Virus record (IMG/VR): IMGVR_UViG_3300035661_000009
Span: 96,016-160,015 of that record
Reading direction: 5' to 3' (one strand)
Length of the DNA stretch: 64,000 nt
Source: a virus
Shown here: piece by piece, positions 4,276-58,688 of the stretch
Layout of the letters: each line of letters opens with the position of its first letter
How positions within the stretch are numbered: position 1 is the first letter of the stretch
Notes under the pieces: generated by a model
What the model saw: the letters and a program-made list of their open reading frames with translations, nothing else
What the model was told of the DNA's origin: nothing
Database searches by the model: none
Made by a program: the position numbers and the translations under genes

Positions 4276-4453
4276 TTAGAGCTTCCTCTCGGTTAATGAA
4301 CTTCATATTCTCTTCTTTAAGCATCTTATTAAGATACTTCGTAATGTTCCTCGTATGGGTTAGGGCATCGTGAACGTCAGTCGCAGGAGGATTATCCTGC
4401 ATATCTTCTACTTCACTCTTTAGCTTCTCAATCATTTGAACTAGATCGTCCAT
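4265..4453 (-). CDS. hypothetical protein
   Basis: 62 aa, first gene after the 4508 promoter, overlaps the amidoligase start. Confidence 0.65.
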   Translation of the reverse strand: MDDLVQMIEKLKSEVEDMQDNPPATDVHDALTHTRNITKYLNKMLKEENMKFINREEALNAF

Positions 4454-4500
4454 GACCTTTTCTTTGCTTTGGTGTAGGTGGCTTGGGTTTCGTTGCTTGC

Positions 4501-4540
4501 CCTCTCAACCCTACCACGGTCGGTTTCCGGTTGCAAGGGC
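4501..4540 (-). promoter_or_regulatory. repeated early promoter, copy 1
   Basis: TTGCAA-N17-TAGGGT (4508-4536); 40 bp identical to 9971-10010. Confidence 0.8.
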
Positions 4541-4568
4541 TAGGACCCGCACAAGCGGGTATATGTAT

Positions 4569-4757
4569 CTATTGTAGTCTATTTACTTGTATCCACGTAC
4601 CGCCATAAATACCTTGCAGACTTTTGTATTTAGTATTAATAGATACGCATATAAATTCGCCCTTTACAGTGCTTATATGAAATTGATACCGCATTTTCAT
4701 CCTAGATATTGATAGTTTCTTAATCTTTACGCTACTATTCCAGATTAGGTGGATCAT
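4569..4757 (-). CDS. small basic hypothetical protein (MIH-start)
   Basis: 62 aa, ATGA overlap with upstream ORF. Confidence 0.5.
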   Translation of the reverse strand: MIHLIWNSSVKIKKLSISRMKMRYQFHISTVKGEFICVSINTKYKSLQGIYGGTWIQVNRLQ

Positions 4758-4966
4758 TGTTTTGGCTTATTAATTAATGTTTTAATTTCGTCGCCTTGAC
4801 AAGAACGTCTTTTGAACCTTAATTCAGTAAATATGTAAGATCTTAATTCTCCGTAATCGGAGTTAAAAATGCTGGAATCTGAAAACCCATCTGTATATGC
4901 TCTGGAGTATACAATCCTATCGTCTTTTATTGAAGACTGATATGCGTATCCATATAAATGTATCAT
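4754..4966 (-). CDS. small hypothetical protein (MIH-start)
   Basis: 70 aa, coupled to the next ORF. Confidence 0.5.
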   Translation of the reverse strand: MIHLYGYAYQSSIKDDRIVYSRAYTDGFSDSSIFNSDYGELRSYIFTELRFKRRSCQGDEIKTLINKPKQ

Positions 4967-5167
4967 TAATTAATGTCGTTGTTAGCCCGTCGATATGAAC
5001 TAACGGATTGCGAGAAACTGCGTTTTGAATAGTAACCCCCAAGAGGGTTTGGAAGTAATTATAGTTACAAGATTGTATCCGTTTACGCCCGTATCCAAAT
5101 CTTTTTTAATCTTGCTTACAGCTTTGCCATATCTAAAGACAATTGTGGGGAACAAGAGTTCTCGTTT

Positions 5168-5193
5168 AAATAAAAATAAAGGCCCGAAGGGCC
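5168..5193 (-). terminator. intrinsic terminator
   Basis: GGCCCTTCGGGCC hairpin followed by TTTATTTTTATTT on the minus strand. Confidence 0.75.
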
Positions 5194-5288
5194 TCTATAT
5201 CTTACTCATTGGGGGGAGATTAAAGGATTACAACAGAAGATGAAGCAGCGCCTTCAATTACAATGAGTCTGATTCTGTTAATTCTTTA

Positions 5289-5588
5289 TCAGGCAGGAAC
5301 GGGAGCTAAAGCTACCGTCGCGGTACGTTCAATAAGCAATTCACCTACAGGCATTTGAGTAACTACCGAACCTACTTTTTCGCCACCCTTTTCTAGGTAT
5401 TTATCGAATTCGCCAGTTTCGAAGACGATTTCGGCTTTCTCAAGTACGTAGTGGGTAGCAGTAACTTTCTTCATATTGCCACGATAAGCATAGGTTGATG
5501 TTTGAATATAATACCTACCTCCAATTACAAATAATCCTTCAGCAAGCATTTGATCGGTAGCTACGGAGACTTCATTGTCAGTTTTCAT
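5289..5588 (-). CDS. hypothetical protein (small beta-rich)
   Basis: 99-aa ORF with purine-rich leader. Confidence 0.7.
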   Translation of the reverse strand: MKTDNEVSVATDQMLAEGLFVIGGRYYIQTSTYAYRGNMKKVTATHYVLEKAEIVFETGEFDKYLEKGGEKVGSVVTQMPVGELLIERTATVALAPVPA

Positions 5589-5644
5589 TGTTTTCTATCT
5601 TTCTTTCTTGTTTATTACATACGGCTAACTACCTACCTACACCT

Positions 5645-5718
5645 TGGGTTCGGTGGGGTACGATCCCACAGCCTATTGATTAAGAGTCAATTGCACTGTC
5701 CATTTGTGCTACGAACCC
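5645..5718 (-). tRNA. tRNA-Lys(CTT)
   Basis: Cloverleaf GGGTTCG/CGAACCC, ATTGA-CTCTTAA-TCAAT; atypical T-loop ATCGTAC; no encoded CCA. Confidence 0.85.
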
Positions 5719-5727
5719 GCTTACTGT

Positions 5728-6249
5728 TTATTTACTGCTGTATTTAGCATAATCTGCGGCGTCTTTATCTTCCTCGTTTGCTATATCATTTTGATAATTA
5801 GCTTGTTTTATAGCTTTATCATAATCAACTTCATACTTAGCTTTTAATTCTGCTAGTAATTTCTTTTCTTTTTCAACCTTTTTAGCTTCTATTTTTGCTG
5901 CCAAGGTCTGCTTCTTTTCTTGAGCTTTAGTCCAGTTTGATTGGAGCGTACGAAGCTCTTTATCTATCTCTTCTTCTGTCTTTTTAATTACGTAATTTGC
6001 AATTAATTCAACGTCACCATAATTATAGCGACTATCGTAAACAGAATTAGTAGATAGTGACAGTTGTTGAATTTTTCCTTCTTTTTCTTTAGCTAATAAA
6101 TTAGTTAATTCTATAATAAGAATTTCTATGTCGCTATGTGACAGGTCTTCAGTAAATATCTGTATTGGCGGAACATAAAACGAAGGCATTTTAGGCGCTT
6201 TATTTTTAATCTTTGGCTTTGTGTTTGGCTTTGTGCTCGATTTTGACAT
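5728..6249 (-). CDS. hypothetical Lys/Glu-rich coiled-coil protein
   Basis: 173-aa ORF. Confidence 0.7.
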   Translation of the reverse strand: MSKSSTKPNTKPKIKNKAPKMPSFYVPPIQIFTEDLSHSDIEILIIELTNLLAKEKEGKIQQLSLSTNSVYDSRYNYGDVELIANYVIKKTEEEIDKELRTLQSNWTKAQEKKQTLAAKIEAKKVEKEKKLLAELKAKYEVDYDKAIKQANYQNDIANEEDKDAADYAKYSSK

Positions 6250-6496
6250 AATTCAGCGCTCCGATAAAAGTGTTAATACGGATTCAAAAGATAATTTTAT
6301 ACTATGGTTAATTATTTCTTCTCCATAACGGTTTAGTGTACTTAACCAAATCTATATGGGGATTGAAGCCAGACACTTTATATCCGGGAAACAAGATTTC
6401 GCATGTTTTAATGGTTTGTTTAACCAACTCAAAATAGAACTTTTCTGAGATTAGGGCCCCCCATTCCTGTCTAACGGATTTAACATCATCTTCATG

Positions 6497-6565
6497 TACT
6501 CCCGAAAAGAGTCGAACTTTTCCGGCAGGCTTATAAGACCCGCTTCCGCAACCGGCGACAGGAGC
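6497..6565 (-). tRNA. tRNA-Ile(TAT) with reduced D-arm
   Basis: GCTCCTG/CGGGAGT acceptor, CGGGT-CTTATAA-GCCTG anticodon arm, AAAAG-TTCGACT-CTTTT T-arm; 69 nt. Confidence 0.7.
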
Positions 6566-6623
6566 AAAAACCCTAATTCATCTAGGGTTAAATCCAAATC
6601 TATGTAATTTGCTATCTAACTAA

Positions 6624-6878
6624 TTAGACAGCGGGGGTCTTTTCGAATTCAACAACGAAAGTAGTCTCGTCGCGGTTTAGCCGCGCAAGAACACCGCTTA
6701 CTTCCGATGAGGGAGAATCAGCATAAGTTTCATCAGCCATATCGACGGTAAAACCTGCCGCCGTCAATAGTGAACTAACTAGCTCGCCAACGGCCTTCTT
6801 ACCTGATTTCGCGGGACCAGCAATCGTAATAGTAACAGTCTTTGACATATTGTTTCTCTTTCTTACTGCGTAATACAA
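6624..6878 (-). CDS. small protein with P-loop-like N-terminus (start probably MSKT at 6848)
   Basis: TITIAGPAKSGKK resembles a Walker A loop, but the protein is only about 74 aa. Confidence 0.6.
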   Translation of the reverse strand: MYYAVRKRNNMSKTVTITIAGPAKSGKKAVGELVSSLLTAAGFTVDMADETYADSPSSEVSGVLARLNRDETTFVVEFEKTPAV

Positions 6879-6921
6879 CGTTGTACAGCACAGCCTTACC
6901 TACCCCATGTAGATAAGACAG

Positions 6922-7003
6922 TTGAGTAGGTTGGAATCGAACCAACTGTATCCGAAGATGGCAGATTTACAGTCTGCTGACTTCCCATGAAGTCATCTAC
7001 TCA
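6922..7003 (-). tRNA. tRNA-Tyr(GTA)
   Basis: TGAGTAG/CTACTCA acceptor, GCAGA-CTGTAAA-TCTGC, long variable arm, GTTGG-TTCGATT-CCAAC. Confidence 0.85.
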
Positions 7004-7047
7004 ATAACAACCAAACTAACTGTAACTATTAACGAAGTCAATCCGTT

Positions 7048-7150
7048 AACCACTGCTCAACCACTGCTCAACCACTGCTCAACCACTGCTCAACCACTGC
7101 TCAACCACTGCTCAACCACTGCTCAACCACTGCTCAACCACTGCTCAACC
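7048..7150. repeat. perfect 11-bp tandem repeat (AACCACTGCTC x9)
   Basis: Nine exact copies plus 4 nt, intergenic, no spacers. Confidence 0.95.
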
Positions 7151-7173
7151 AACCCGTCCGCTACCGCCCGACA

Positions 7174-7202
7174 ACCCTATCACACCCGGTTCGTACCGTC
7201 AA
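7174..7202 (-). promoter_or_regulatory. sigma70-type early promoter
   Basis: TTGACG-N17-TAGGGT; one mismatch to the promoter at 14438-14466. Confidence 0.8.
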
Positions 7203-7329
7203 CACCCCGGCTTAACGCGCTGTGTTGCGGTTGCGCCGCTTATTCTTGCCTACCTGTATGCCCAACCCTAAGGCCGCAGTTAAAGCTATATTTAGTTATA
7301 TAGCTTGGAAAGTGCCAAAAAAATATGTA

Positions 7330-9970: not shown

Positions 9971-10010
9971 CCTCTCAACCCTACCACGGTCGGTTTCCGG
10001 TTGCAAGGGC
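9971..10010 (-). promoter_or_regulatory. repeated early promoter, copy 2
   Basis: Identical to 4501-4540. Confidence 0.8.
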
Positions 10011-10018
10011 CGAGCGGA

Positions 10019-10246
10019 TCAAGCACTTGCCATAAATAAGTAATTCCAACGCTCCCCAGCTACTTCTTTATTTACTAGGAAATCGTATGGAAGTTGATCA
10101 GCAAAATGATTTAAGCATAGATCACATGTCTTGCTGCCATCAACAAAAGCCTCTTCTATGCGAGCTTGCTGACATAAATCGCAACAATGGGGTGGTTTAA
10201 CTACTTCTAATGCCGCTAATGCTTCAATTTTTTCGATTGTATTCAT
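10019..10246 (-). CDS. small Zn-ribbon-like protein
   Basis: CDLC...CDLC pairs. Confidence 0.6.
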   Translation of the reverse strand: MNTIEKIEALAALEVVKPPHCCDLCQQARIEEAFVDGSKTCDLCLNHFADQLPYDFLVNKEVAGERWNYLFMASA

Positions 10247-10257
10247 AATTTCCTAGG

Positions 10258-10653
10258 TTAGTCTAATCTTCCTGATTTCATCTCTTTGATTACGGCTCTT
10301 AATATCTCAAATCCTTCATCTGAAAGCGGAAAGTCATCTTTACGGAGTTTATTTATAATACGTTTCGCTCTCTTTTTAGCTGACCTACTCGGCCTCTTTG
10401 TATAATCAAACTTCTCATATTTCTCATACTGTCCGTATTTAGAGCGCCGACCACGCAGTATATCTATTTCTAGCTCAAGCTGCTTGTCGGTCATATTCTT
10501 ATACCTATCCCGAGTCTCCTTCATATCGGTAGGATTGATTGAGTTAGATGGGTTACTTGGACCCAGATCTCCGGGATCCTCATCTCCACCATATGGATCA
10601 AAATCCCTCCTAACTCCTGGTTTATTCAGGTTTTCATTTTTATATCGGCTCAT
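10258..10653 (-). CDS. hypothetical basic protein
   Basis: 131-aa ORF. Confidence 0.65.
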   Translation of the reverse strand: MSRYKNENLNKPGVRRDFDPYGGDEDPGDLGPSNPSNSINPTDMKETRDRYKNMTDKQLELEIDILRGRRSKYGQYEKYEKFDYTKRPSRSAKKRAKRIINKLRKDDFPLSDEGFEILRAVIKEMKSGRLD

Positions 10654-36518: not shown

Positions 36519-37208
36519 CTAGCGCTGTAATTGCTTTAGTAGCTCTTCCAACGGATTGACTACTCGGATTACGGTTTCGGGCGGCAACTTTTCTACCTCT
36601 ACTGTCCCGTCTATTAATCCATCTTCTTTTGCTTCTTCCCATCCAAAGAACCAATCTTTATTGTCTATTTTCTCTAAAAACTGTTCTTTGGTAAGTTTAC
36701 TTCGCTTACATACTTGCTCGGCCATTGTTAGTTTAATGACGTTAAGAAACTTGGCTGTGCTTTCAAGATCTTGCTCCTTCCCCTCGCCTTGTGAGCTTGG
36801 GCCATGAGCCATTAAGACTGTACGTTTAGTAGTTAAACGAAAGTCACAATATTGAAGAAGAACGAAGCCCATTGACATTGTTTTAATGTCAGCGACACAA
36901 GTAACTGGCGATCCGTAGGTTTCAATAGCTCTGACTAATTCCATTCCATCAAAAACTGAACCACCGGGGCTATCTATCCTTAACCAAAGATTGGTATTAC
37001 CTGATTCCTTTAGCTCTTGTATCTTAGCTATATATGCTTTTACGTTGCTCGGTGTGATCTCAGCAATTTGGAGCATAACTGGGGCAGAAATAACTGGAAT
37101 TGGCGCTGGTTCTCCCACTGGTTGTGCAATAGTGCAGGCGGCGACTACGACGATAAAAGCGATAGAAAGTCTCATTAAATTACCCATATATTTGAGATTG
37201 GTACTCAA
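36519..37208 (-). CDS. clpP: ClpP-family (S14) serine protease with lipoprotein-type signal
   Basis: IDSPGGSVFDG, MSMG, MAH, DWFFGWEEAKEDGLID; N-terminal MRLSIAFIVVVAAC; start probably 37186. Confidence 0.8.
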   Translation of the reverse strand: MSTNLKYMGNLMRLSIAFIVVVAACTIAQPVGEPAPIPVISAPVMLQIAEITPSNVKAYIAKIQELKESGNTNLWLRIDSPGGSVFDGMELVRAIETYGSPVTCVADIKTMSMGFVLLQYCDFRLTTKRTVLMAHGPSSQGEGKEQDLESTAKFLNVIKLTMAEQVCKRSKLTKEQFLEKIDNKDWFFGWEEAKEDGLIDGTVEVEKLPPETVIRVVNPLEELLKQLQR

Positions 37209-39412: not shown

Positions 39413-40084
39413 TTACGCAATAGACCAACGGAGGATCTTTGCGCCGGTTACCGCTGAAGAAGTTGTTACAGTAAAGCTTCCAGCAGTGGGTACTACGATA
39501 TGGGTAATTCCGGCACCTAAAGCCGTTTCCCATTGAATATTGACTACATCGTTTGCAGTAACTAAACTGTTTGTTACGGTCATGGTAGATGCCGCATTAG
39601 CCATAGCTGCTCGACCTTTAGCTGTATTGCCAACGCCTGAGCCCGGGGTGCCTGAAATATCAGTAAAACCGGCAGTTCCAAGTCTTGTAGCGACTATTGG
39701 GGCGGTTATATTGATATTTGTACCGTCAAACGATATAAATGAGTTCGCTGAAGGACCATCTAAAATAATTGAGCCGCCAACTGGGATTTCTTGACCATTA
39801 TCTGCGAAAAGAAAATCGACCTGTTGCGGCTGCGTGAGTTTTGCTGATAATGCTACTGTATAGGCTGAACTAGGGAACCTGGTATATTGTCCATATATCT
39901 TAACTGCTAATTGAGTTGAAGAAAGAATGGCATCTACAAGTAAAGACACTGTAGGTAAGCCGGTTGCTGACAAATAGCACGTCGCTCCTACTTCAAATAG
40001 ACTTGTATCTGCAAAAGTTAATATACCATTGCTACCGCCATCGGCGGTAAGCGAAGCTATGATTTGCTGGGTCATTACAGTCAT
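39413..40084 (-). CDS. virion fibre/decoration protein
   Basis: N-terminal domain paralogous to 46989-48098; late motif upstream. Confidence 0.65.
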   Translation of the reverse strand: MTVMTQQIIASLTADGGSNGILTFADTSLFEVGATCYLSATGLPTVSLLVDAILSSTQLAVKIYGQYTRFPSSAYTVALSAKLTQPQQVDFLFADNGQEIPVGGSIILDGPSANSFISFDGTNINITAPIVATRLGTAGFTDISGTPGSGVGNTAKGRAAMANAASTMTVTNSLVTANDVVNIQWETALGAGITHIVVPTAGSFTVTTSSAVTGAKILRWSIA

Positions 40085-40134: not shown

Positions 40135-40680
40135 TTACAGCGTTATATTAGATTCAACTTCATTACCAAAACAATCCCAACCTTCGACCTTTTGTCTGGC
40201 AAAAAGCTCAATTCTAGGTAAGGGACCGATTAATTTAAGTATTAAATCACGAACTTCGGCTGGTTTTTCTGAATGTCTACCGATTGGTGAAGTAATTAAT
40301 TGGTGGATGCCGTGATCAATTACTTTGGGTTTTCCCCTAACTCCTATAAAACAAGGCTCGGTACAGGCCCGCGTATAGCGCCCCATGCCCCAAAACGGGG
40401 TTTTAGCCTTTTTGTTTAGCTTGACCCACTGGAACCCAAGGGTTTTGTATTCGAAACCCCACGAGGCCATTACGCCCAAGCAATCGGGTAGTTTAGGATA
40501 AGTCGCCCACATAAATAGAATACAATTATCGTCCGCTATGTCTTTTACCTTCATTTTACATAAATCTTCAGTAGAAAGAGTGGGATAATGGTTTTCTGCG
40601 CCACCTCTTGGGGTTTTATCATTATATGCCCATGGAGGATCCGCTAATATGATTTGGTATTTTTTAGTGATTATGGTCAT
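40135..40680 (-). CDS. MT-A70 family N6-adenine methyltransferase
   Basis: ILADPPW, LFMWAT, HSEKP, RIELFAR, GNE. Confidence 0.92.
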   Translation of the reverse strand: MTIITKKYQIILADPPWAYNDKTPRGGAENHYPTLSTEDLCKMKVKDIADDNCILFMWATYPKLPDCLGVMASWGFEYKTLGFQWVKLNKKAKTPFWGMGRYTRACTEPCFIGVRGKPKVIDHGIHQLITSPIGRHSEKPAEVRDLILKLIGPLPRIELFARQKVEGWDCFGNEVESNITL

Positions 40681-41126: not shown

Positions 41127-41663
41127 TTATTCTTTCGTAATAGTAGCTATAAGGTCTTGGCAAGCCTCTTTGTAGTTGTTTACAGCGAATTGCTGGAATT
41201 CCGTGCTACGAACAGTAAGATCTTGACGTAAGCTATAACCCCACGTCGCACTCCAATTGCAAGTAAACCCACCCGGTAAGAATTCTCCGTCTGTATGAGG
41301 AGCATTCTTTGCTCGCCAGTCTTTATTTAAATAATAATACCACATTTCAGCTACGGGGGGCCATTTGTGAGTTGGATCGCCTAAGGCTCGATTGCTAGCC
41401 CAATGTGGTGTAATTATTGAACATTTTCCACCCTTCTTCATAACGCGATATAATTCGTTTACAAAATGCATACGTTCTTCTGCGGTTAAATGCTCTACGA
41501 AGTGGCTGGCATGAGCTTCTGATACGGTTCCGTCAGCCCATGGGAATGTATCCTTGCCTACATTTAAAACTACATCGACTCCGGGGAAGGAAATTGAATC
41601 AACTCCTAGAAATCCTTGGCGTTTGTTCGGTCCACAGCCGAAGTCTATCTTGATATCTGTCAT
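41127..41663 (-). CDS. class I SAM-dependent methyltransferase (type 11-like)
   Basis: IDFGCG, HASHFVEHL, ELYRVMKKGG, DPTH. Confidence 0.88.
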   Translation of the reverse strand: MTDIKIDFGCGPNKRQGFLGVDSISFPGVDVVLNVGKDTFPWADGTVSEAHASHFVEHLTAEERMHFVNELYRVMKKGGKCSIITPHWASNRALGDPTHKWPPVAEMWYYYLNKDWRAKNAPHTDGEFLPGGFTCNWSATWGYSLRQDLTVRSTEFQQFAVNNYKEACQDLIATITKE

Positions 41664-41664
41664 A

Positions 41665-42144
41665 TTATTCCTTTATGGTTTGCTCTACGCCCTCTTCGAG
41701 TAGCGAAGATAGGCCATTTTCGGCTAAAATTTGTGCTAGATTGTCTGTATCTTTAACCGTTACGAAGAAAAAAACGCCATAGGGCTGAGACAGGTCTGTA
41801 ATCGCCATTTTAATTGAGCCCGGAGGGGCGAGACTTCCAATAACCTCTACTCCAGCAGCAATAACTTTATCTAAGGTCGGTAAGACGAACTGATTTAAAA
41901 TATCGCTTGGAGTTGACGATTCTTCACCTAATATGGTTTGATATAGTGTGGTTCTTACAATTTTTGATAAAAACAAAGTTCTATATCCAGCGTCTTTGTC
42001 TGCAATTTTATTAAATCTTGTTTCTGCAATTGTTTTGTATTTATCTGGTACAGGTAGCTTGGTAATTGATAAATGTCTAGAGGCTTTGTTTTCATCAATA
42101 GCTTTTTTAAAATTTTCAATTGCTTCCATTATTTTGTCGTTCAT
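41665..42144 (-). CDS. hypothetical protein
   Basis: 159 aa between GT and MTase. Confidence 0.7.
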   Translation of the reverse strand: MNDKIMEAIENFKKAIDENKASRHLSITKLPVPDKYKTIAETRFNKIADKDAGYRTLFLSKIVRTTLYQTILGEESSTPSDILNQFVLPTLDKVIAAGVEVIGSLAPPGSIKMAITDLSQPYGVFFFVTVKDTDNLAQILAENGLSSLLEEGVEQTIKE

Positions 42145-42158
42145 ATTATTCCTTTAGG

Positions 42159-42872
42159 TTACCACGTAAATCCGTCACCCGAACTATCGTGGTGACCTAC
42201 AAGTATACTACAGTCAATGGCACAACGATAGCCGTATTTTCTAAAGTCTGTCCAAGCATAAAGATCTTGCGTCATAATCCCGCCATCTCCAGCCAAAGTC
42301 TTAAACCATGGTTTGCGGAGACGCTCATCCTTAAACATGCTAGTTCTGAATAAATTAAAACCCATACCCGTGCCACAGCATTCTACTAATTGTCCGGGAA
42401 TGGGAGGTTGCGGTCGGAAATTCAATACGGGGTCTTTGGGATCGCCCCAAATCTGTGGAACGCCGCCCTCGCCCTTGGTCCAGTATAAACCACCTATGCA
42501 TGAAAGCTCTGGGTGCTTTTCCATTTGGTTAATAAGTTTTAATACGCCATCCGCTGGAGGCATGTTGTCGTGTTCTAGCGTAAGTATGTATTCCCATTGG
42601 CTTAAGTCAGGGTTTGCAAGGATTTGGTCAATGGCTTGACTATAAGCCTCACCTACTTCTAACCCTAATGCGAGCATTCGGTAAACAGCTTGATTGGGCG
42701 GAAACATTAAATTCCAGTGCGATAATGCGACTTTACTGTCTATCATTTTCGCTGCTGGGATTATTACGATTATTCGTTGTTTCTTCCAACTGCCGCCTTC
42801 AAATATGCGTTTAGTCGATTCTTCAAGATTTTTGTTATGTTGACCGGGGTCGGTCTCGGTAATTATGGTCAT
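42159..42872 (-). CDS. GT-A fold (GT2-like) glycosyltransferase
   Basis: IIVIIPA, EYILTLEHDN, IGGLY, GTGMGFNLF, PWF, TQDLY, VGH. Confidence 0.75.
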   Translation of the reverse strand: MTIITETDPGQHNKNLEESTKRIFEGGSWKKQRIIVIIPAAKMIDSKVALSHWNLMFPPNQAVYRMLALGLEVGEAYSQAIDQILANPDLSQWEYILTLEHDNMPPADGVLKLINQMEKHPELSCIGGLYWTKGEGGVPQIWGDPKDPVLNFRPQPPIPGQLVECCGTGMGFNLFRTSMFKDERLRKPWFKTLAGDGGIMTQDLYAWTDFRKYGYRCAIDCSILVGHHDSSGDGFTW

Positions 42873-42878
42873 AAGTGC

Positions 42879-42887
42879 ATTATACCA
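42879..42887 (-). promoter_or_regulatory. extended -10 promoter giving a leaderless GT transcript
   Basis: TGGTATAAT 6 nt upstream of the GT ATG. Confidence 0.55.
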
Positions 42888-42896
42888 CAGATATAG

Positions 42897-42925
42897 AAAA
42901 AGAAAAGACCGCCAAAGCGGGCTTT
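42897..42925 (-). terminator. intrinsic terminator after the repeat fibre gene
   Basis: AAAGCCCGC-TTTG-GCGGTCTTT followed by a T-rich run. Confidence 0.6.
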
Positions 42926-43111
42926 GTTATATTTACGTTGTTTAAGGAACGTTAAAAGCTAAACATAAGAATAAACTGCAATATCGTAAAAATTTGATCA
43001 TTGATATCTTTATTGTTGAATTCAAGGAATCCCGGAATTAGGCTTCATTGTGCGGAGCAGTATACCACGACGTGCCAGAGTCAACCACCCAAATACTTAA
43101 ATTACAAAGTC

Positions 43112-46100
43112 TTACAACGTCTTGCCGATAACAGCCAGCCACAGTGAGCCGTTACTGGCTTGTGTGCTGATTTGACTTAGCGGAATAGCTGTTGTAGTTT
43201 GAGTGCTTGCGCTGTACGATCCAAAACCTGGGCGGTAATTACTAGTGGTTATGAACACAGAGTTGCCAATTTCAGCGTAACTGTTGGTAGATCCAGTGAA
43301 ATATAACATTCCTGGAGTAGTCATCATGGCTACGCGGTTCAATGAATAGTTAGTAGAGCCAGTAGTTGTAGATTGAATCATTCCTATCCAATATTCACCC
43401 GGCGTAACATTGCTCCCAGCTAACGGGACAAATAATGGGCGTATTCCTGACATATGAACATATGGGAAGTTCATTTGGAATGAAGATGAGAACGAGTTTG
43501 CATTAGTGGACGTACTACTAAATGATGATGAAGATGAGGAAGTCGTAGCCGAAGTTGTTACGCCACCGCCACCGTCAATATTTTTAATAAAACCTACTGC
43601 CGCTGAGGTTGTAAATGAAGCTGTGGCAGAAGAGACATTTGTAGACCAAGATACTGAAACCGAATATCCAGCGGACATTGAATAAGTATTTGACTGAAAC
43701 GTTTGGATGCTATTATAGCTGGCATTTGTTTCGTTAGTATTTAATCTACTAAACCACAATACTGTTCCGGTCTGACCCCACGTTCCTGAGCCAGATGAGG
43801 CGCTCCCTGCCGAAACTGAAGCAGAAATACTCATCGTACTGGATACGGAAGCATATGATTGCTGAAATTGAATCATATCTCCGTCATAATAGCCATCTAA
43901 TTCAACTGGACGGATAAATAACGTTCCGTTGGCGTGTGAAGAAGTGAGGGTGTTCCCCCAGATCTCTGGTTCCCACCAGCTACCAGTGAAAGCTGCCCCG
44001 CCAGCATTAACCGATGCGGTAATTACAGAGTTGTTACTCATTCCGAAGGTAACGCCGTTAGAGTTAGCAAAAACTAGCGTTCCAGAGGCATTAGAAGAGA
44101 AGGTCTGGGTTCCTGCGGCTATTGCGTTATCTATATCATTAAATGAAGCGGTTAGTGTTCCACCATTTAATCCAAACGAGACTGAATTTGCATTACTAAA
44201 TAAAACCGTAGTAGAAAGAGCGGCAGTGGACCCGGCTACTGCAATTATATTATAACCATCTCCACCACCGCCACCGGCTGGAACAGAGATAATTACGTTC
44301 CCTGCTGAATAACCTACAGAAGCTATGCCTGCTCCAGAGAAACTTAAGGTTCTAGCGTCAAATGTTGAGCTTGAACTTTGACCGGTAGTGTTACCTACGG
44401 CGTATAGCCCTATTGTTTGATCAGTTTGAGCTGGAATGTTCGGTACTGTATAGCTTGCCGTAATTTGACTAGATCCTGATAATCCAAAACTAATACCATT
44501 GCTGTTTACAAAATTTAGGGTGCCTGAGGTCCCTGTTTGTGTCCCTGCTGCAAAAGCGCTTGGGCCAGTTGATTGACTATAACTTGCAGAAGCTGTTATA
44601 GTCGAAGCATTAAAGCCGAAGGTGATATTGTTACTATTGCTAAAGACTACGTTACCAGAAGAACCTTGGACCTGTACCGATCCTTGAGTTTGTACTGATT
44701 GTGAAAAACTCGCTGTTACTATTGACGAGTTATTCATCCCAAAAGATACGTTATTTGAATTACTGAAAACTACAGAACCCGAGGTATTGGCGGTCTGCGT
44801 ACCGGCTGCTATTACATTATAAGTCTGTACTGATTGAGTAGGAACGGTGTAACTAGCCGTAATCTGACTTGACCCAGACATACCAAAACTAATGCCATTA
44901 CTATTTGCAAATGCTATTGTTCCAGAGGTCGCTGTTTGAGTACCGGCCCCAATTGCTCCAAAATTTCCTGTAGCTGTGGCTCCAGCACCAACAGAGGCGG
45001 TTATTGTATTAGCGTTAGCTCCGAATGTAATACCGTTACTATTGGCGAAAGAAATGTTTCCGCTTGAACCCAACACCTGCACAGAGTTTTGAGTCTGTAC
45101 TGATTGAGAAGTGCTGGCCGAGATAATAAAACTACCGCCAGAGTTACCAACTGAAACTATGCCCGCTCCCGAGAAGGAAAAAGTTCTGGCATCGTAGGTT
45201 GAAGAACTTGATTGACCGGTAGTGTTACCTACGGCATAAACACCTTCTGTTTGCACAGATTGAGTAGGAACGGTATAGCTAGCGGTCAATACTGAAAAGT
45301 TTGAAAGACCGAAGCTAATACCATTGCTATTTTGAAACAAAACTGTTCCAGTTGTATTAGCCGTTTGAGTACCAGCGGCAATGATATTTACACCATCTCC
45401 TGCTCCACCGCCAGAAGGTACTGAAATTACTACAGAGCCGTTTGAATAGCCTACGGATGCAACGCCAGCCCCTTGAAATGTGATGCTTCTGGCATCGAAA
45501 GTTGAAGAGCTTGATTGTCCAGTAGTATTGCTTACAGCGTATAGGCCAATAGTTTGATTAGTTTGAGCTGGAACGTTTGGAACAGTATAGCTTGCCGTAA
45601 TTTGACTAGATCCTGATAATCCAAAACTAATGCCGTTTGAATTAGCGAAGTTTAAAGTTCCAGAAGTTCCTGTCTGTGTACCTGCTGCGAACGCACTTGG
45701 TCCAGTTGATTGACTAAAACTTGCAGAAGCTGTTATAGTCGAAGCATTAAAGCCGAACGAGACATTATTTGAGTTACTGAATACTACGTTACCCGAACTT
45801 CCTTGGACCTGTACTGAATTCTGGGTCTGTACTGATTGAGAGGTTGAAGCTGAGATAATGAAGCTACCGCCAGAATTACCAACTGAAACTATACCACCGC
45901 CAGAAACACTCCAAGTTCTAGCGTCATAAGTTGAAGAACTTGATTGTCCAGTTGTATTACCAATGGCATAGATACCTTCCGTCTGATTGCTTTGGCTTGG
46001 TACGGTGTAGCTTGCCGTAATTTGACTAGATCCTGATAATCCAAAACTAATACCATTACTGTTTACAAAGTTTAAAGTTCCAGAAGTTCCTGTTTGAGTT

Positions 46101-46960
46101 CCAGCAGCAAAACCACTTGGTCCAGTAGATTGACTATAACTTGCAGAAGCTGTTATAGTGCTGGCATTAAAGCCGAAGGTAATATTATTTGCGTTAGCAA
46201 AAGTAATAGCGCCGGTCGAACCTTGAACTTGAACAGAGCCCTGAGTTTGAACAGATTGGGTAGGAACGGTATATGAAGCGGTTATAGTACCGGCATTCAT
46301 TCCAAATGAAACACCATTCGCATTGCTAAAACTTACCGTACCTGAAGTAGCTGAAGTTGTGCCTGCTGCAATTACTGCTGGAGCAGTAGATTGACTAAAA
46401 CTTGCAGAAGCTGTTATAGTGCTGGCGTTAAAGCCGAAGGTGATATTGTTTGAGTTACTGAAGACTACGTTACCAGAAGAACCTTGGACCTGTACTGAAT
46501 TCTGGGTTTGAACAGTTTGGGTAGGAACGGTGTAGCTAGCAGTGATTTGACTGCTATTACTCATTCCAAATGAAATACCGTTTGAGTTAGCGAAGTTTAG
46601 AGTTCCGGATGTTTGGGTCTGAGTGCCTGCTGCTGCGGCTCCAATTCCGGCTGCTGCGCCTGCTTGAACAGACGCAGTTACTACGGAGCCATTTAATCCA
46701 AATGAAACACCATTACTGTTGCTAAAAACGATGGTTCCTGTAGTGTTTGCAGTCGAACCGCCAGCAGCGATGATATTTACACCATCGCCTGCCCCACCAG
46801 CACCACCTACGATATTTAATGTACCTGCATTAACAGATAAAGTAATATTGTTACCACCGGCAATTACTACACCTGCGGCATTACCTACTGTAGACGCACC
46901 TACAGTATTCCCTGACAAAGTAAGGGCGCTGACTGTACCGTTTGGTGGATAATATGGCAT
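43112..46960 (-). CDS. 1282-aa Ser/Thr/Gly/Asn repeat fibre protein
   Basis: 16 FxN[SA]Nx[VI][ST]FG modules and 4 NTTGQSSSST[YF]DAR modules; in tail gene block. Confidence 0.75.
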   Translation of the reverse strand: MPYYPPNGTVSALTLSGNTVGASTVGNAAGVVIAGGNNITLSVNAGTLNIVGGAGGAGDGVNIIAAGGSTANTTGTIVFSNSNGVSFGLNGSVVTASVQAGAAAGIGAAAAGTQTQTSGTLNFANSNGISFGMSNSSQITASYTVPTQTVQTQNSVQVQGSSGNVVFSNSNNITFGFNASTITASASFSQSTAPAVIAAGTTSATSGTVSFSNANGVSFGMNAGTITASYTVPTQSVQTQGSVQVQGSTGAITFANANNITFGFNASTITASASYSQSTGPSGFAAGTQTGTSGTLNFVNSNGISFGLSGSSQITASYTVPSQSNQTEGIYAIGNTTGQSSSSTYDARTWSVSGGGIVSVGNSGGSFIISASTSQSVQTQNSVQVQGSSGNVVFSNSNNVSFGFNASTITASASFSQSTGPSAFAAGTQTGTSGTLNFANSNGISFGLSGSSQITASYTVPNVPAQTNQTIGLYAVSNTTGQSSSSTFDARSITFQGAGVASVGYSNGSVVISVPSGGGAGDGVNIIAAGTQTANTTGTVLFQNSNGISFGLSNFSVLTASYTVPTQSVQTEGVYAVGNTTGQSSSSTYDARTFSFSGAGIVSVGNSGGSFIISASTSQSVQTQNSVQVLGSSGNISFANSNGITFGANANTITASVGAGATATGNFGAIGAGTQTATSGTIAFANSNGISFGMSGSSQITASYTVPTQSVQTYNVIAAGTQTANTSGSVVFSNSNNVSFGMNNSSIVTASFSQSVQTQGSVQVQGSSGNVVFSNSNNITFGFNASTITASASYSQSTGPSAFAAGTQTGTSGTLNFVNSNGISFGLSGSSQITASYTVPNIPAQTDQTIGLYAVGNTTGQSSSSTFDARTLSFSGAGIASVGYSAGNVIISVPAGGGGGDGYNIIAVAGSTAALSTTVLFSNANSVSFGLNGGTLTASFNDIDNAIAAGTQTFSSNASGTLVFANSNGVTFGMSNNSVITASVNAGGAAFTGSWWEPEIWGNTLTSSHANGTLFIRPVELDGYYDGDMIQFQQSYASVSSTMSISASVSAGSASSGSGTWGQTGTVLWFSRLNTNETNASYNSIQTFQSNTYSMSAGYSVSVSWSTNVSSATASFTTSAAVGFIKNIDGGGGVTTSATTSSSSSSFSSTSTNANSFSSSFQMNFPYVHMSGIRPLFVPLAGSNVTPGEYWIGMIQSTTTGSTNYSLNRVAMMTTPGMLYFTGSTNSYAEIGNSVFITTSNYRPGFGSYSASTQTTTAIPLSQISTQASNGSLWLAVIGKTL

Positions 46961-46988: not shown

Positions 46989-48098
46989 TTAGTTAGTTAT
47001 TTCAGTAACTAAAGCGTTACCGTTTGCGGATACCCAAATCCCATCTATTTGGCCAGTGTATCCCGCTGGTACTTCATAATATGCGTTTGGGGCCATCTTA
47101 ACAGAATACGATGAAGAACTTGCAGTTACTCCAAGCTTTAGATATAAGAATTGAGTGGAATCATTGAATATAGTTAGGCCCATTCTTGCCCCATTACTTG
47201 CTTTTAAAGTAACGTTGGTAGCTGAAGAAGCAACTTGAGTAATTGCCGTAGAACCTGATTTTTCTACTATACGTAAATTGCCGTTTAAGTCTACAGATAG
47301 TGCGACTTGATTGCCATCTGAATAACTTGGATTAGCCGTATTAGCGATTGCATTTAATACTGGGACGTTAACAGTACCTAATGCTGTATTATTGCTTCTA
47401 CTTCCTTGTACGTAGAATGGATTAGCTGCAATTCCAGCTTCAACTGAACCACCAGATCCTGATTGACGTATATTTACGCCAAGAACGTATTGCAATCCCG
47501 CACCTGTATCTACATCAAAAACTCGAGCGCCTTGCATATTTGCGCCGTCATTAAAGCCAACCGCCGTTGCAATACCTGGGAATCCACCACCTATTGAAGA
47601 AGCCGTGCCTCCTCCGCCGCCACCAGAAATGCCGGTAACTACTATAGGATTAAGGGCGGTTCCTAAGACGTTAGTCCCGTCAGTTACCTTAACTGGCCAG
47701 CCATTAGCTAAGGAAGAGTTAGGCGTGCCTTGAGCAACTCCAGCAACGTCTCGCATATCACGCAATATGCGGTAAACATCGCTAATTCCAGGATCCTTAT
47801 TTACGAAGAAGTTAGTCTGTTCCGGCTGAGTTATTGTAGCAGCAAGAGCTACGGTGTAGGCCGAAGAGTCGAACCTTGTGTAAACGCCCGGAGTCGTAAG
47901 TTTTACATAAAATGTAGTGTCGTTTACGATATCTGCTATTTGTAAACTTACAGAAGGCAGGCCGGTTGCATTTAAATAAACTACAGACCCTATCCTTAAT
48001 CTAAAGGTAGAGGCTATAGTTAGAAGGCCGGTCGAAGACCCGTCAGCTACTAAACTTTGTTTTTCAAATGGAACTAATGATGTGCCCCAATCAGCCAT
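46989..48098 (-). CDS. virion fibre/decoration protein
   Basis: N-domain shared with 39413-40084; C-terminal RMGLTIFNDSTQFLYLKLG...YTGQIDGIW domain. Confidence 0.65.
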   Translation of the reverse strand: MADWGTSLVPFEKQSLVADGSSTGLLTIASTFRLRIGSVVYLNATGLPSVSLQIADIVNDTTFYVKLTTPGVYTRFDSSAYTVALAATITQPEQTNFFVNKDPGISDVYRILRDMRDVAGVAQGTPNSSLANGWPVKVTDGTNVLGTALNPIVVTGISGGGGGGTASSIGGGFPGIATAVGFNDGANMQGARVFDVDTGAGLQYVLGVNIRQSGSGGSVEAGIAANPFYVQGSRSNNTALGTVNVPVLNAIANTANPSYSDGNQVALSVDLNGNLRIVEKSGSTAITQVASSATNVTLKASNGARMGLTIFNDSTQFLYLKLGVTASSSSYSVKMAPNAYYEVPAGYTGQIDGIWVSANGNALVTEITN

Positions 48099-48719: not shown

Positions 48720-49178
48720 TTAGCTACCGTAGTTAGTAGCTCCATTATCGTCGTCGTGAGGGTTGTTTTCGTCGTTAACTACTGTGCCCATAAATCTAGC
48801 TGATAGATCTTGTACGCCACGGGCTGAGGTTGAGGTGCTGTAGCCTAATGGACGAACGTTTTGAACGGTCATAATTTGTTGATGGCCTTGACGATCTTCT
48901 AGATAAAGAGAGAAATCTTGGTGATTCAATAAATCTTGAAGTTTTGGAATTGAAATACTACCATACGGGCCCTTATTCAAAACGCGGAAACCTGAGCAAC
49001 TTACGGTAACCGTATCCATATCGGTGTAAACTAATTCAGCAGCGTTGTATCGACCAAGAATATAAATCGGTGAAACACCATAGTTTACTTCATAGCTAGC
49101 GCTAGTAAAGACACCAATTAAGTTGCCGTTTATATATAGTCTGGCGCGCGCGCCAGTTAATGTTTGTGCTTGTGCCAT
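48720..49178 (-). CDS. tail tube protein
   Basis: 152 aa directly after sheath; TGARA...PIYILG...AELVY. Confidence 0.8.
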   Translation of the reverse strand: MAQAQTLTGARARLYINGNLIGVFTSASYEVNYGVSPIYILGRYNAAELVYTDMDTVTVSCSGFRVLNKGPYGSISIPKLQDLLNHQDFSLYLEDRQGHQQIMTVQNVRPLGYSTSTSARGVQDLSARFMGTVVNDENNPHDDDNGATNYGS

Positions 49179-49192
49179 TTTATTCTCCTAAA

Positions 49193-52066
49193 TTACTGTG
49201 CTGCCGATTGCTGAACTTGATTTACGATAGTTGTTATCGGAATGAAGTACAATCCGGTAGCTTCATAAATTTCAACGCTTACTTGAGCAACTGGGCCGTT
49301 TATTGCAACTGTTGCGTTACGGTAGCCAGCAGGAGCACCGTCAGACGAGGCAATTAACTTCAATCTCTTTAGGTCACTTAAAACGCCCTGTACGAAGGCT
49401 AGAATGACTCCTGCGCCAACATCCGCTAGTGATTGACCTACGAACGCTCTTTCGACTCTTGAAGCTAGAGTGAGCGCAATAGTGTCAGCTACGTACATAG
49501 CTTGGATTGAGTTATATACGAAATTGCCATCAACTCCATAGGTGGTTTGGTCAGAAACCCAACGATATCCGCCAGTATCCGCTTGTTCGGCAGGTAGTAA
49601 GCCATTTGAAAGAGCATCTTCTACTTGGCTCAATATTTGATCTGAGTATGAACCATCGGCCATTAATACGCCCGAGACGTTCATAAACTTATTAACTATT
49701 GGCTTATAGAACCCAGCCGCTTGCATTGAGGCAGCAACTACCGCTAGGCCCCATGGTTGCATTTGAGTCAAAACACCTTGGCTATTTGCAGCCTTGATAT
49801 CTTGAAAGCACATTGAAACTCTTTGTGAAGCAAGGTTGGCAGCAGCAAGCTTAACTGAAGTAAATGAAGCCTTCTTGCTAACAAACCCTAGACGGTGGCG
49901 GCGGCGCTTGACTTGGCTCATTGCCAAAACATGAGTCTTGACGTATGCGTTGATTGAGTCTACAAGATAGGTTGAAGAGGCGTCAGTCAATGCGTCTGTA
50001 ATATCTGCCGTAGAATCTCTTGAGAAGAGAGTTACTAGGAAGTTACCACGAACCTTCTCTAATTGGTCAATAGCTGCGGTTACTTGAGTAGTTGAACTAC
50101 CGCCACGAGCGCCCCCTGATAGGAATACTAATGCTTGAGCTTCAGGTTGGCCTGATGCTGGAGGCAAACTTAATACTGAACCAGCTTGGCTGATAAAGAT
50201 TAAGAATGAGGATTGGTCAATCGTTGTCCAGAGGCTATATGCTGCTTTCTTGACTCTTCCGGGCGAAGCTGATAGATGACTTGCGATACCCCAAGTTCCC
50301 TTATCTAGCACAACTTGTGCAACGTTGTTATTGTCAGTAAAGTTTAGTGCAGTTTGCCCATATAGTGAAGAAGCAACAGAAGCGGTGTAGCCGGTTTGTG
50401 AGTTAATGTAACCAACTAAATCGTTTATGGTTCTGTAATTCTTTAGGTTTATGGTTAAATTACTTCCCGTTCCACCAGTAACTGTAGTAGTTAAGGTAGT
50501 TCCTGAAATCGTCATTGAACCAGTAATTGAGGTTGATAATCCGCTTCCGTTATAACCTACAGCTAGAACTACTGCCGGATCTCCACTGAATGATTCTGAG
50601 ATATTATCAGTTGAGCGAGCACTTGAAACTAAAGCTTTGTATTCCGACGCCGAGGTTAGTAAGAACGGAGCTCCTGAGACAGAAATCCAAGTAACTGGAG
50701 TTGCTGAAAGATTAAATAATTGGAGTTGAGGAGTTACGCCCGAAAGAGCGAATACTTCTAAGGTTTTGCCAGTTCCGTCAATATCTGGACGTAGACAAAC
50801 TAAGTCAGTAGTCAGAGCAACGTTAGCTGAAGCGAACGAAACTGGGGTGCCATCGCTTAATCTGGTCATTGTTATAAATGAGCCACCAGCTAATACTGAA
50901 GATCCTGAGGCTGTAACGCGATACCAGCCCGCATTTGTTGCAGGGGTCCAACCCGCTGGGGCATTTGAGGCAATTTGTAGTAAATCACCTACCGCTGGGG
51001 TTGCAGCCCAAAGTTGTGTAGTCGCTAAGGTCAGAGTTAATGACTGACCTGAAGCCGTACCAGTCACGCCTTGACCGACTAATCCAGTCAATACAGGACG
51101 AGCGGTGCCGGTTGCGTTATTTAAAGTAATTGGTGAGTAGCAAAGAACGTCGCCAGTAGCGACGATCGAGGTTGACGTAACTACGGTAGTAACATTAGTC
51201 GCACCACCTGAAGTGGCATCTGCTAATTTAGTAGCAGAAATTGAACTTGAGCTAACTGCCGTAACTACATAACTACCTCTGTTGTTTACTGCACCTGAAC
51301 CTAGTACCGATGTTGAAGTAATGGTTAAAGTATCGCCAACGCTTGGGGTATTTGCCCAAGTTCCTGAGTTTGTTATAACTATTTGACCAGTGGTGCCGGT
51401 TAGAGCTAAGGTCCCAGTAATAGTAGTAATTACGCTACGATTTAATCCGCCGGTCGCATAGACGCCTGAAAGTGCGTTTAATTGACCAGCCACTACGGTT
51501 GGAGTGGTTGAAGCCGCCAGGGCTAAAGTTTGAGTCGCACCACCATTTACACGTAAACCAATGCTTGAAGCACCGGCTGAGCCAAAAGGAATCCAAGTAA
51601 ACGCACCAGTGGTTGGAGCTACTTCAGCTTGTGCTGAAGTTACTGTTACGTTAGTTAAGTTACCTAAAGCTCCCCAAGCATCATCTGCTGCTGTACCCCA
51701 AGCAGTTAAGCCCGCACGAGTTAATGAAGCTGAAGCCTTACTGGGAGTATTGGTTTTTACTATATAAGCACGAGTAAATGATCCGGTAATCTGCGGATCG
51801 CTTGAAGCGGCAACTGCAAGTTTAAAAGCGTCTACAATCGGCCCGCTCTTATATTTAGCTAAAACGGCACCTAATTGATCTGGCCCGTAGAAATTATTTG
51901 TAACTAGAGTTGAATCTAGGGTTACATCAGGCCCTGCGTCGGCTTCACCAACTAGCATTAATACACCAGTCGTGGCAACGCCTGAGTTTGATTGTCTGAC
52001 TTGAACGTCAACAACCGAACTTGGCTTAATTAATGTACCAAAAGTACCTGTATAGCTTTGTGCCAT
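49193..52066 (-). CDS. contractile tail sheath protein (957 aa)
   Basis: LVGEADAG, WGALGN, HVLAMS, WVSDQTTY, C-terminal YFIPIT. Confidence 0.85.
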   Translation of the reverse strand: MAQSYTGTFGTLIKPSSVVDVQVRQSNSGVATTGVLMLVGEADAGPDVTLDSTLVTNNFYGPDQLGAVLAKYKSGPIVDAFKLAVAASSDPQITGSFTRAYIVKTNTPSKASASLTRAGLTAWGTAADDAWGALGNLTNVTVTSAQAEVAPTTGAFTWIPFGSAGASSIGLRVNGGATQTLALAASTTPTVVAGQLNALSGVYATGGLNRSVITTITGTLALTGTTGQIVITNSGTWANTPSVGDTLTITSTSVLGSGAVNNRGSYVVTAVSSSSISATKLADATSGGATNVTTVVTSTSIVATGDVLCYSPITLNNATGTARPVLTGLVGQGVTGTASGQSLTLTLATTQLWAATPAVGDLLQIASNAPAGWTPATNAGWYRVTASGSSVLAGGSFITMTRLSDGTPVSFASANVALTTDLVCLRPDIDGTGKTLEVFALSGVTPQLQLFNLSATPVTWISVSGAPFLLTSASEYKALVSSARSTDNISESFSGDPAVVLAVGYNGSGLSTSITGSMTISGTTLTTTVTGGTGSNLTINLKNYRTINDLVGYINSQTGYTASVASSLYGQTALNFTDNNNVAQVVLDKGTWGIASHLSASPGRVKKAAYSLWTTIDQSSFLIFISQAGSVLSLPPASGQPEAQALVFLSGGARGGSSTTQVTAAIDQLEKVRGNFLVTLFSRDSTADITDALTDASSTYLVDSINAYVKTHVLAMSQVKRRRHRLGFVSKKASFTSVKLAAANLASQRVSMCFQDIKAANSQGVLTQMQPWGLAVVAASMQAAGFYKPIVNKFMNVSGVLMADGSYSDQILSQVEDALSNGLLPAEQADTGGYRWVSDQTTYGVDGNFVYNSIQAMYVADTIALTLASRVERAFVGQSLADVGAGVILAFVQGVLSDLKRLKLIASSDGAPAGYRNATVAINGPVAQVSVEIYEATGLYFIPITTIVNQVQQSAAQ

Positions 52067-58633: not shown

Positions 58634-58688
58634 TTTATCCTCAAATCAAAGATTGCTATTATGTGGTATAATGGAATCAGAGGTTTAC

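Follow-up and report, generated by a model that had tools for sequence, protein, structure and literature searches.

A fibre, glycosyltransferase and methyltransferase gene cassette recurring in uncultured phages, and a candidate methylated glycan on an accessory virion appendage

The window analyzed here is a stretch of 64,000 nucleotides (nt), bases 96016-160015 of the 160,015-bp IMG/VR virus record IMGVR_UViG_3300035661_000009, which has a completeness rating of 99%. Its minus strand carries every gene from 26.8 to 64 kb. Within this block the gene of a 1282-amino-acid (aa) repeat protein rich in serine and threonine (P0001), a putative virion fibre, is followed by genes for a glycosyltransferase (GT) of the GT-A fold (P0002), for an open reading frame (ORF) product termed P0003, and for a class I S-adenosylmethionine (SAM) methyltransferase (P0004). 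An initial annotation, made from the sequence alone, had described these four ORFs as a candidate system for glycosylating a virion fibre; all four were confirmed in place on the minus strand. We report that the fibre-like protein, the GT and the methyltransferase form a cassette found in many uncultured phages, and we consider what the two enzymes may act upon.

Whether relatives of the two enzyme genes accompany the repeat protein had been fixed beforehand as the decisive check, and co-occurrence was found in both directions. Starting from the GT, we assembled 80 IMG/VR loci and 12 contigs from metagenome-assembled genomes (MAGs), and examined what lies next to 83 distinct GT genes. An ORF of at least 200 aa and at least 24% Ser+Thr, ending no more than 1.5 kb upstream on the same strand, was present in 61 of 71 evaluable loci; the background of such richness among same-size ORFs of the same loci, with the partners themselves counted in, was 111 of 807. 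A P0004 homologue lay no more than 2 kb downstream on the same strand in 67 of 76 loci. Many of the upstream partners have an N-terminal domain motif in common ('VRPSDWNSAHN..TLSGNTAG.ST.SGTN'), and a reverse search of IMG/VR with this DWNSAH-type domain alone led to the GT within 2.5 kb downstream in 28 of 31 evaluable distinct loci (at +2.6 kb in one more) and to the methyltransferase in 29 of the 31. The contigs of the reverse test overlap the GT-seeded set in part, but many were not in it, and their GTs fall to 52-64% identity. From whichever side it is approached, the linkage of fibre, GT and methyltransferase is nearly obligate. We regard the cassette itself as almost certain and its description as a dedicated fibre-plus-modification module as well supported. 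More than 100 unrelated phages, all uncultured, have the trio in nearly the same order, a recurrence suggesting that many phages in the environment may decorate a surface fibre with methylated sugars.

The carriers differ in structural layout and include the myovirus of the window, a genome deposited under 'Podoviridae' and a phage whose tail fibre is of the lambda J type; the cassette is also found on contigs of 447 kb and 127 kb. If X denotes the Ser/Thr-rich protein and MT the methyltransferase, the order is sheath-tube-...-X-GT-(ORF)-MT in the window, terminase-portal-X-GT-MT-...-major head protein at locus L008, central tail fibre J-X-GT-MT-tail-fibre-like protein at L024, and major head protein-X-GT-MT at L074. 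A tblastn search of 50,697 GenBank phage records with P0002 (E<=1e-3) matched only three metagenome-assembled records from Manatee Spring, with no match to Mx1 or to any cultured phage. The complete 42.6-kb genome MW202524, from Manatee Spring and deposited as Podoviridae sp., has, after its capsid gene and three other GTs, a 598-aa repeat protein, a methyltransferase, a GT (66% identical to P0002) and a second methyltransferase (55% identical to P0004). The 598-aa protein is a Ser/Thr/Gly/Asn repeat protein that starts 'MP...GGNNITLS', as P0001 does. The three extra GT genes (761, 309 and 333 aa; positions 3147-7307 of MW202524, locus L096) lie between the major capsid gene and the cassette, and suggest a longer glycan or additional glycosylated virion proteins.

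Other candidates for membership were rejected. The initial annotation had counted P0003 as part of the system; no homologue was found in the 81 related loci, and P0003 is an insertion peculiar to this phage, outside the conserved cassette. A 135-aa protein (phrog_3758) encoded upstream of some partners was found at only 4 loci, and the MT-A70 methyltransferase that lies near the cassette in the window occurs in 1 of 81 other cassette loci. A host assignment from the 12 MAG contigs was likewise dropped, their taxon labels spanning many phyla; these GT-carrying contigs are probably mis-binned phage DNA. The sole GT relative on a chromosome-sized contig lies in an Alphaproteobacteria MAG (L095, 3.1-Mb contig, 10001-10631). 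It has 46% identity, the ORF scan gave no clean frame there, and it could be a prophage or cellular homologue and a possible host clue.

P0002 is a GT-A glycosyltransferase by fold, not by Pfam score, so that the assignment made in the initial annotation holds. Its AlphaFold2 model (pLDDT 77, pTM 0.78) has the GT-A fold, and Foldseek returned 169 PDB matches at E<=0.001, the top matches listed being nearly all GT-A enzymes. The best is A197 of Sulfolobus turreted icosahedral virus (STIV; 2c0n, E 4e-8, TM 0.56/0.68, 13% identity), followed by the LH3 glycosyltransferase domain, Mnn9, mimivirus R699, RmlT, TarP, POMGnT1 and polypeptide GalNAc-transferases. At normal thresholds P0002 matches nothing in Pfam, PHROGs or NCBIfam. 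Its sole Pfam signal is Glycos_transf_2 at 13.5 bits, under the gathering cut-off of 23.3, and only 5 of 42 distant relatives weakly reach that family at E<=0.01; for these reasons the P0002 family is a separate branch of the GT2-like fold class and not a curated GT2 member. In a profile of 30 homologues the segment 'EYILTxEHDN' of P0002 aligns with 'EYITYATDDN', the DxD segment of SpsA, which sets E100-H101-D102 against the DD motif of SpsA. In 42 relatives with identities of 29-45%, D102, D203 and H227 never change and E100 hardly does; the consensus of these relatives is 'EDDN'. Such conservation is what an active metal-dependent GT-A would show, and E100/D102, D203 and H227 are candidate catalytic and metal-binding residues. 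Homologues are abundant in metagenomes, with more than 6254 clusters at the 90% level, most of them 66-82% identical and all lacking a recorded Pfam domain, and 1193 representatives at the 50% level (E<=0.001); 293 IMG/VR viral stretches encode a relative confirmed by tblastn.

The second enzyme, P0004, stands as the class I SAM methyltransferase that it had been taken for. It passes Methyltransf_11 (23.4 bits, cut-off 21.2), matches phrog_6636 (E 2.7e-14) and has the SAM-binding motif I, DFGCGPN, at residues 7-13; its language-model (Atlas) neighbours are viral clusters that are 60-98% Methyltransf_11. Searches for transmembrane segments found none in any cassette protein, and NCBIfam and PDB sequence searches of the GT, the methyltransferase and their neighbours gave nothing informative.

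P0001 consists of 18.4% Ser, 12.9% Thr, 13.1% Gly, 10.4% Ala and 8.8% Asn, with just 33 charged residues and no Cys. Residues 1 to about 980 comprise an N-terminal 'MP..GGNNITLS' segment and 16 repeats of about 44 aa, each with the core N[SA]N[GNS][IV][ST]FG and spaced mostly 43-44 residues apart; residues from about 990 to 1282 form a conserved C-terminal beta-sandwich domain. Tandem Repeats Finder found no repeats in the DNA of the gene, the copies being too diverged and visible at the protein level only. An iterative hidden Markov model (HMM) seeded with residues 981-1282 recruits the ORF directly upstream of the GT in 46 loci. The recruited proteins measure 260 to 1216 aa, the match always stops about 20-25 residues short of the C-terminus, and identity to P0001 in this domain is 15-41%, with conserved motifs still seen in the alignment.

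The AlphaFold model of the C-terminal domain is an all-beta sandwich (pLDDT 67.5, pTM 0.64). Foldseek against PDB gave no match at E<=0.001; the matches that follow come from a Foldseek-independent structure search (VIA-wide, Z scores) and from BFVD. The former gave chain Z of the cyanophage A4 capsid (9jwb_Z; Z 12.4 over 154 residues) and a domain of a 610-aa Bxb1 tail-tip protein (9d93_Pa; Z 12.0), the next-best match being at 8.6. Judged by its 201-aa length and the published description, and not by the PDB entry, chain Z is most likely the trimeric auxiliary cement protein gp25, which consists of an N-terminal anchor and a carbohydrate-binding module exposed on the capsid (PMC12002296). 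These two are the closest folds to the C-terminal domain; they have only 9-10% identity to it and no repeat shaft. In BFVD the best match (E 2.8e-19) is a homologue of 834 aa from an uncultured Caudovirales phage; it is named 'Parallel beta-helix repeat', a name that hints at a beta-helical shaft in the repeat region of P0001.

The N-termini of the partners are of several types. The DWNSAH type is found in 24 of 42 full-length partners, the 'MP..GGNNITLS' type in P0001 and MW202524, and an Mtd_N tail-fibre domain in L057/L062 (38.1 bits); further types exist. P0001 itself has no Pfam or PHROG match; what bears on the fibre class is Mtd_N in the partner of L057, the likeness of the C-terminal fold to capsid-cement and tail-tip proteins, and the name of the BFVD homologue. 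A variable anchor, a repeat shaft and a conserved distal sandwich encoded amid late structural genes make up the putative anatomy of an accessory virion fibre or spike. Some loci hold more than one partner: three tandem short copies precede a single GT at L064 (3-2819), and at L069 (1-9936, on the 447-kb contig) a pair of ORFs longer than 1100 aa, with 29-30% Ser+Thr, is joined by two smaller partner genes. Inside the fibre gene of the window, four identical promoter-like sites (TTGACT-18-TATAGT) occur on the plus strand at 44573-46420, antisense to the gene; most likely they merely reflect the repetition of the coding sequence.

The spacer between fibre and GT had been read as a terminator followed by an extended -10 promoter, by which the GT could be made before the fibre. 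The motif is present, as TGGTATAAT at 42879-42887, 6 nt ahead of the GT start codon, and in a second copy, TGGTATACT, further upstream at 43059-43067. The hairpin and U-tract at about 42900-42925 are weak (-8.9 kcal/mol, z -1.55), and a scan for consensus promoters and terminators called neither the spacer motifs nor the hairpin, so that the promoter and terminator calls fell and a separate timing of the GT is unsupported beyond the presence of the motif. The pattern TGGTATAMT, to which both copies belong, occurs five times (1.37 expected; 1 of 100 shuffles reached five), at 28377, 42879, 43059 and 55945 on the minus strand and at 58664 on the plus strand, two of these sites being within the spacer; it may be a -10 element of phage promoters.

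The cassette lies downstream of tail genes (Table 1). The record is Mx1-like; its sheath and the tail sheath of Myxococcus phage Mx1 share 46% identity along the full length. Sheath and tube-like genes were found upstream of the fibre region, which the initial annotation had placed between tail tube and tail chaperone genes; the label of tail chaperones for the downstream genes could not be confirmed, as these gave no PHROG matches. The cassette is bracketed by the 369-aa protein and a 223-aa protein (39413-40084, minus strand), whose N-terminal regions of about 85 aa are paralogous (54% identity, E 1e-23). This N-domain was considered as a fourth conserved component and rejected: it is confined to this phage, and more than 150 related cassette loci contain no homologue. 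It appears to be an attachment domain specific to the lineage and shared by two further fibre-like proteins. An ORF resembling ClpP and head maturation proteases (36519-37208, minus strand; phrog_94, E 6e-26) lies amid apparent tail genes, far from the head genes at 55-63 kb.

Table 1. The cassette and its neighbours in transcription order; positions refer to the window
Feature	Position	Strand	Remarks
Tail sheath	49193-52066	minus	phrog_279; upstream of cassette
Tube-like gene	48720-49178	minus	phrog_985; upstream of cassette
Acidic 166-aa protein	between tube-like and 369-aa genes	minus	
Gly/Ser-rich 369-aa protein	46989-48098	minus	lineage-specific, outside cassette
P0001, Ser/Thr-rich repeat protein, 1282 aa	43112-46960	minus	putative virion fibre, proposed glycan acceptor
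Fibre-GT spacer, 239 nt	42873-43111	minus	two TGGTATAMT motifs and a weak hairpin/U-tract
P0002, GT-A fold glycosyltransferase, 237 aa	42159-42872	minus	unassigned GT2-like family
P0003, ORF, 159 aa	41665-42144	minus	no Pfam, PHROG or NCBIfam match
P0004, class I SAM methyltransferase, 178 aa	41127-41663	minus	motif I DFGCGPN; proposed glycan methylation
69-aa ORF	between P0004 and MT-A70 genes	minus	
MT-A70-type DNA methyltransferase	40135-40680	minus	intact; PF05063 96 bits, phrog_359; 450 nt downstream of P0004

The cassette and the folds of its two enzymes are observed, and from them we infer an acceptor, a type of linkage, a sugar and a methyl acceptor. Late in infection, fibre, GT and methyltransferase would all be made in the cytoplasm. 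The GT would take its sugar from a host nucleotide-sugar, because the phage encodes no sugar-nucleotide enzymes (a genome search found no second GT2, epimerase or NTP-transferase), and would transfer it to the fibre, most likely through an O-linkage to Ser or Thr. The methyltransferase would then methylate the attached sugar, and the modified fibre would be built into the virion as an accessory appendage. On balance we think it somewhat more likely than not that the GT glycosylates the adjacent fibre, that the methyltransferase methylates the sugar and that the fibre is an accessory part of the virion. The enzymes are strongly conserved, the GT being 66-82% identical between otherwise unrelated phages, and the distal domain of the fibre falls to about 20% identity, as would be expected of a receptor-binding or exposed surface part.

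Several observations weigh against this explanation. The cassette is absent from every cultured phage among the GenBank phage records searched. P0001 has 36 N-x-S/T sequons, as compared with 34.3 +/- 4.7 in composition-preserving shuffles; of the earlier statement that the fibre is loaded with Ser/Thr and N-x-S/T sites, the part on Ser/Thr stands (31%) and the sequons are at chance level. No conserved acceptor motif was identified in the Ser/Thr-rich protein, the model of its C-terminal domain is of moderate confidence only, and the gene linkage would follow equally if the enzymes acted on the receptor of the fibre. From the proposal of a methylated-glycan fibre system we thus retain the linked module, we give up the arguments from N-x-S/T sites and early expression, and we infer the glycosylation itself. 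The wider proposal, that a horizontally moving 'glyco-fibre' cassette (a Ser/Thr-rich fibre with a swappable anchor, a new GT-A family and a SAM methyltransferase) lets phages coat an accessory appendage with methylated O-glycans of their own making, is put forward tentatively, as a serious possibility.

The linkage data would be explained equally well if the fibre were a receptor-binding protein and the GT and methyltransferase modified, from the cytoplasmic side, the host envelope glycopolymer that serves as its receptor or receptor precursor. This would block superinfection or stop progeny from sticking to debris, and the genes would travel together since they concern the same receptor. The host surface had been named as an alternative substrate from the start, and it still fits these data. 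The fold matches of P0002 include RmlT and TarP, the latter a prophage GT-A whose substrate is wall teichoic acid, and the C-terminal domain of P0001 resembles a carbohydrate-binding module. However, enzymes that edit a receptor should co-vary with the domain that binds it, and the GT is 66-82% identical where the putative receptor-binding domain is 15-41% identical. Furthermore, the cassette is always found in late structural blocks, including those of the 160-kb myovirus and the 447-kb contig, not at positions typical of lysogenic conversion, and it has no membrane segment or lipid-carrier domain; we regard receptor editing as unlikely. Still less probable, in our view, is that the enzymes modify other virion proteins such as capsid or tail tube, instead of or besides the fibre, and that the fibre is merely a neighbouring accessory gene. 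The known mycobacteriophage targets are capsid and tail-tube subunits (PMC12363180), and the cassette adjoins portal or capsid genes in several loci. Nevertheless, the capsid, portal and tail genes near the cassette come from unrelated families at the various loci, and the Ser/Thr-rich protein is the sole constant companion of the two enzymes.

Two further explanations fare worse. Genes directly downstream of phage fibre genes are commonly chaperones, and the GT and methyltransferase could occupy this usual position as factors for fibre assembly or folding with little or no catalysis, a role compatible with a P0002 that stays below Pfam thresholds. However, hundreds of clusters conserve the SAM motif I and, in the GT, the DxD-type acid, His227 and the putative base Asp203, as expected of active enzymes, which contradicts a purely chaperoning role and makes it very improbable. 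DNA hypermodification, the other substrate considered in the initial annotation, would have the GT act on a hydroxymethylated base and the methyltransferase on either the sugar or the DNA. Some phage GTs are known to glycosylate DNA, and an MT-A70 DNA methyltransferase gene lies 450 nt downstream of the methyltransferase gene of the cassette. This MT-A70 neighbour recurs in only the 1 of 81 other loci mentioned above, no Thymidylat_synt-type hydroxymethylase is found in the 99%-complete genome, and the complete MW202524 carries the cassette with no annotated DNA-modification pathway or hypermodification gene; a Tet_JBP search had no match either, but its control was silent too. We give DNA as the substrate hardly any credence.

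If the fibre is indeed the acceptor, glycosylation by phages of their own appendages would be common among never-cultured phages of freshwater, soil and groundwater. To our knowledge, a few mycobacteriophages are the only tailed phages with demonstrated glycosylation of virion proteins, which in their case changes recognition by antibodies; such glycosylation would then extend well beyond the actinobacteriophages. A new family of protein-glycosylating GTs would be defined along with its acceptor, and a function would be assigned to a large, strongly conserved family that has no Pfam, PHROG or NCBIfam model. The 237-aa GT, the 178-aa methyltransferase and the repeat acceptor would make up a compact set, possibly useful for glyco-engineering of phage or protein surfaces.

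Among known systems, mycobacteriophages offer a close parallel. Their own GTs glycosylate capsid and tail-tube proteins (PMC12363180), and Corndog has an O-methyltransferase beside three GTs, between its portal and protease genes, none of these enzymes being detected in virions (PMC4351075). Che8, Corndog and Myrna share with the cassette the placement of one or more soluble phage GTs and an O-methyltransferase in a structural operon; the mycobacteriophage enzymes are not virion components, and their targets are virion surface proteins (PMC4351075, PMC12363180). The differences are that those targets are capsid or tail-tube subunits and not a dedicated fibre, and that the cassette has a single GT of a distinct family and occurs in uncultured phages. 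No homology of P0002 to Che8 gp110 or Corndog gp38 was detected in the tblastn search of GenBank phage records (E<=1e-3). In the chlorella virus PBCV-1, A064R combines a GT-A domain, a second GT domain and a SAM methyltransferase domain, A061L is a 209-aa SAM methyltransferase, and the two build and methylate the capsid glycan, with O-methylation of the terminal sugar (PMC9614988). The likeness is in virus-encoded cytoplasmic GT-A and small class I SAM methyltransferases that act on a glycan of a virion protein; PBCV-1 is a eukaryotic giant virus with an N-linked glycan on its major capsid protein, fused domains and a pathway of several GTs.

STIV A197, the best structural match of P0002, is like it a small, soluble, single-domain viral GT-A, and differs in coming from an archaeal virus and in its low identity; we know of no established substrate for A197. 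Bacterial adhesins are paired with cytoplasmic GTs in AIDA-I/Aah and TibA/TibC heptosylation, in HMW1/HMW1C and in serine-rich repeat adhesins with GtfAB. These pairs resemble the cassette in that a surface fibre rich in repeats and in Ser/Thr has its gene beside that of a soluble GT, by which it is modified while still in the cytoplasm, ahead of export or assembly; their GTs belong to other folds and families (GT-B or the BAHT family), have no methyltransferase partner, and are cellular and not viral. The serine-rich repeat adhesins rely on the GT-B pair GtfA-GtfB and an accessory Sec locus, in contrast to a GT-A with no further GT in the genome, so that the resemblance is one of logic only. 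The principle that viruses glycosylate their virion proteins with methylated sugars by enzymes of their own is thus already known. What is new here is the abundance of the cassette in uncultured phages, as against its absence from every cultured one in the GenBank phage records, its mobility across phages of different structural layouts, a GT family held by no curated library, and a dedicated fibre as the constant partner of the two enzymes.

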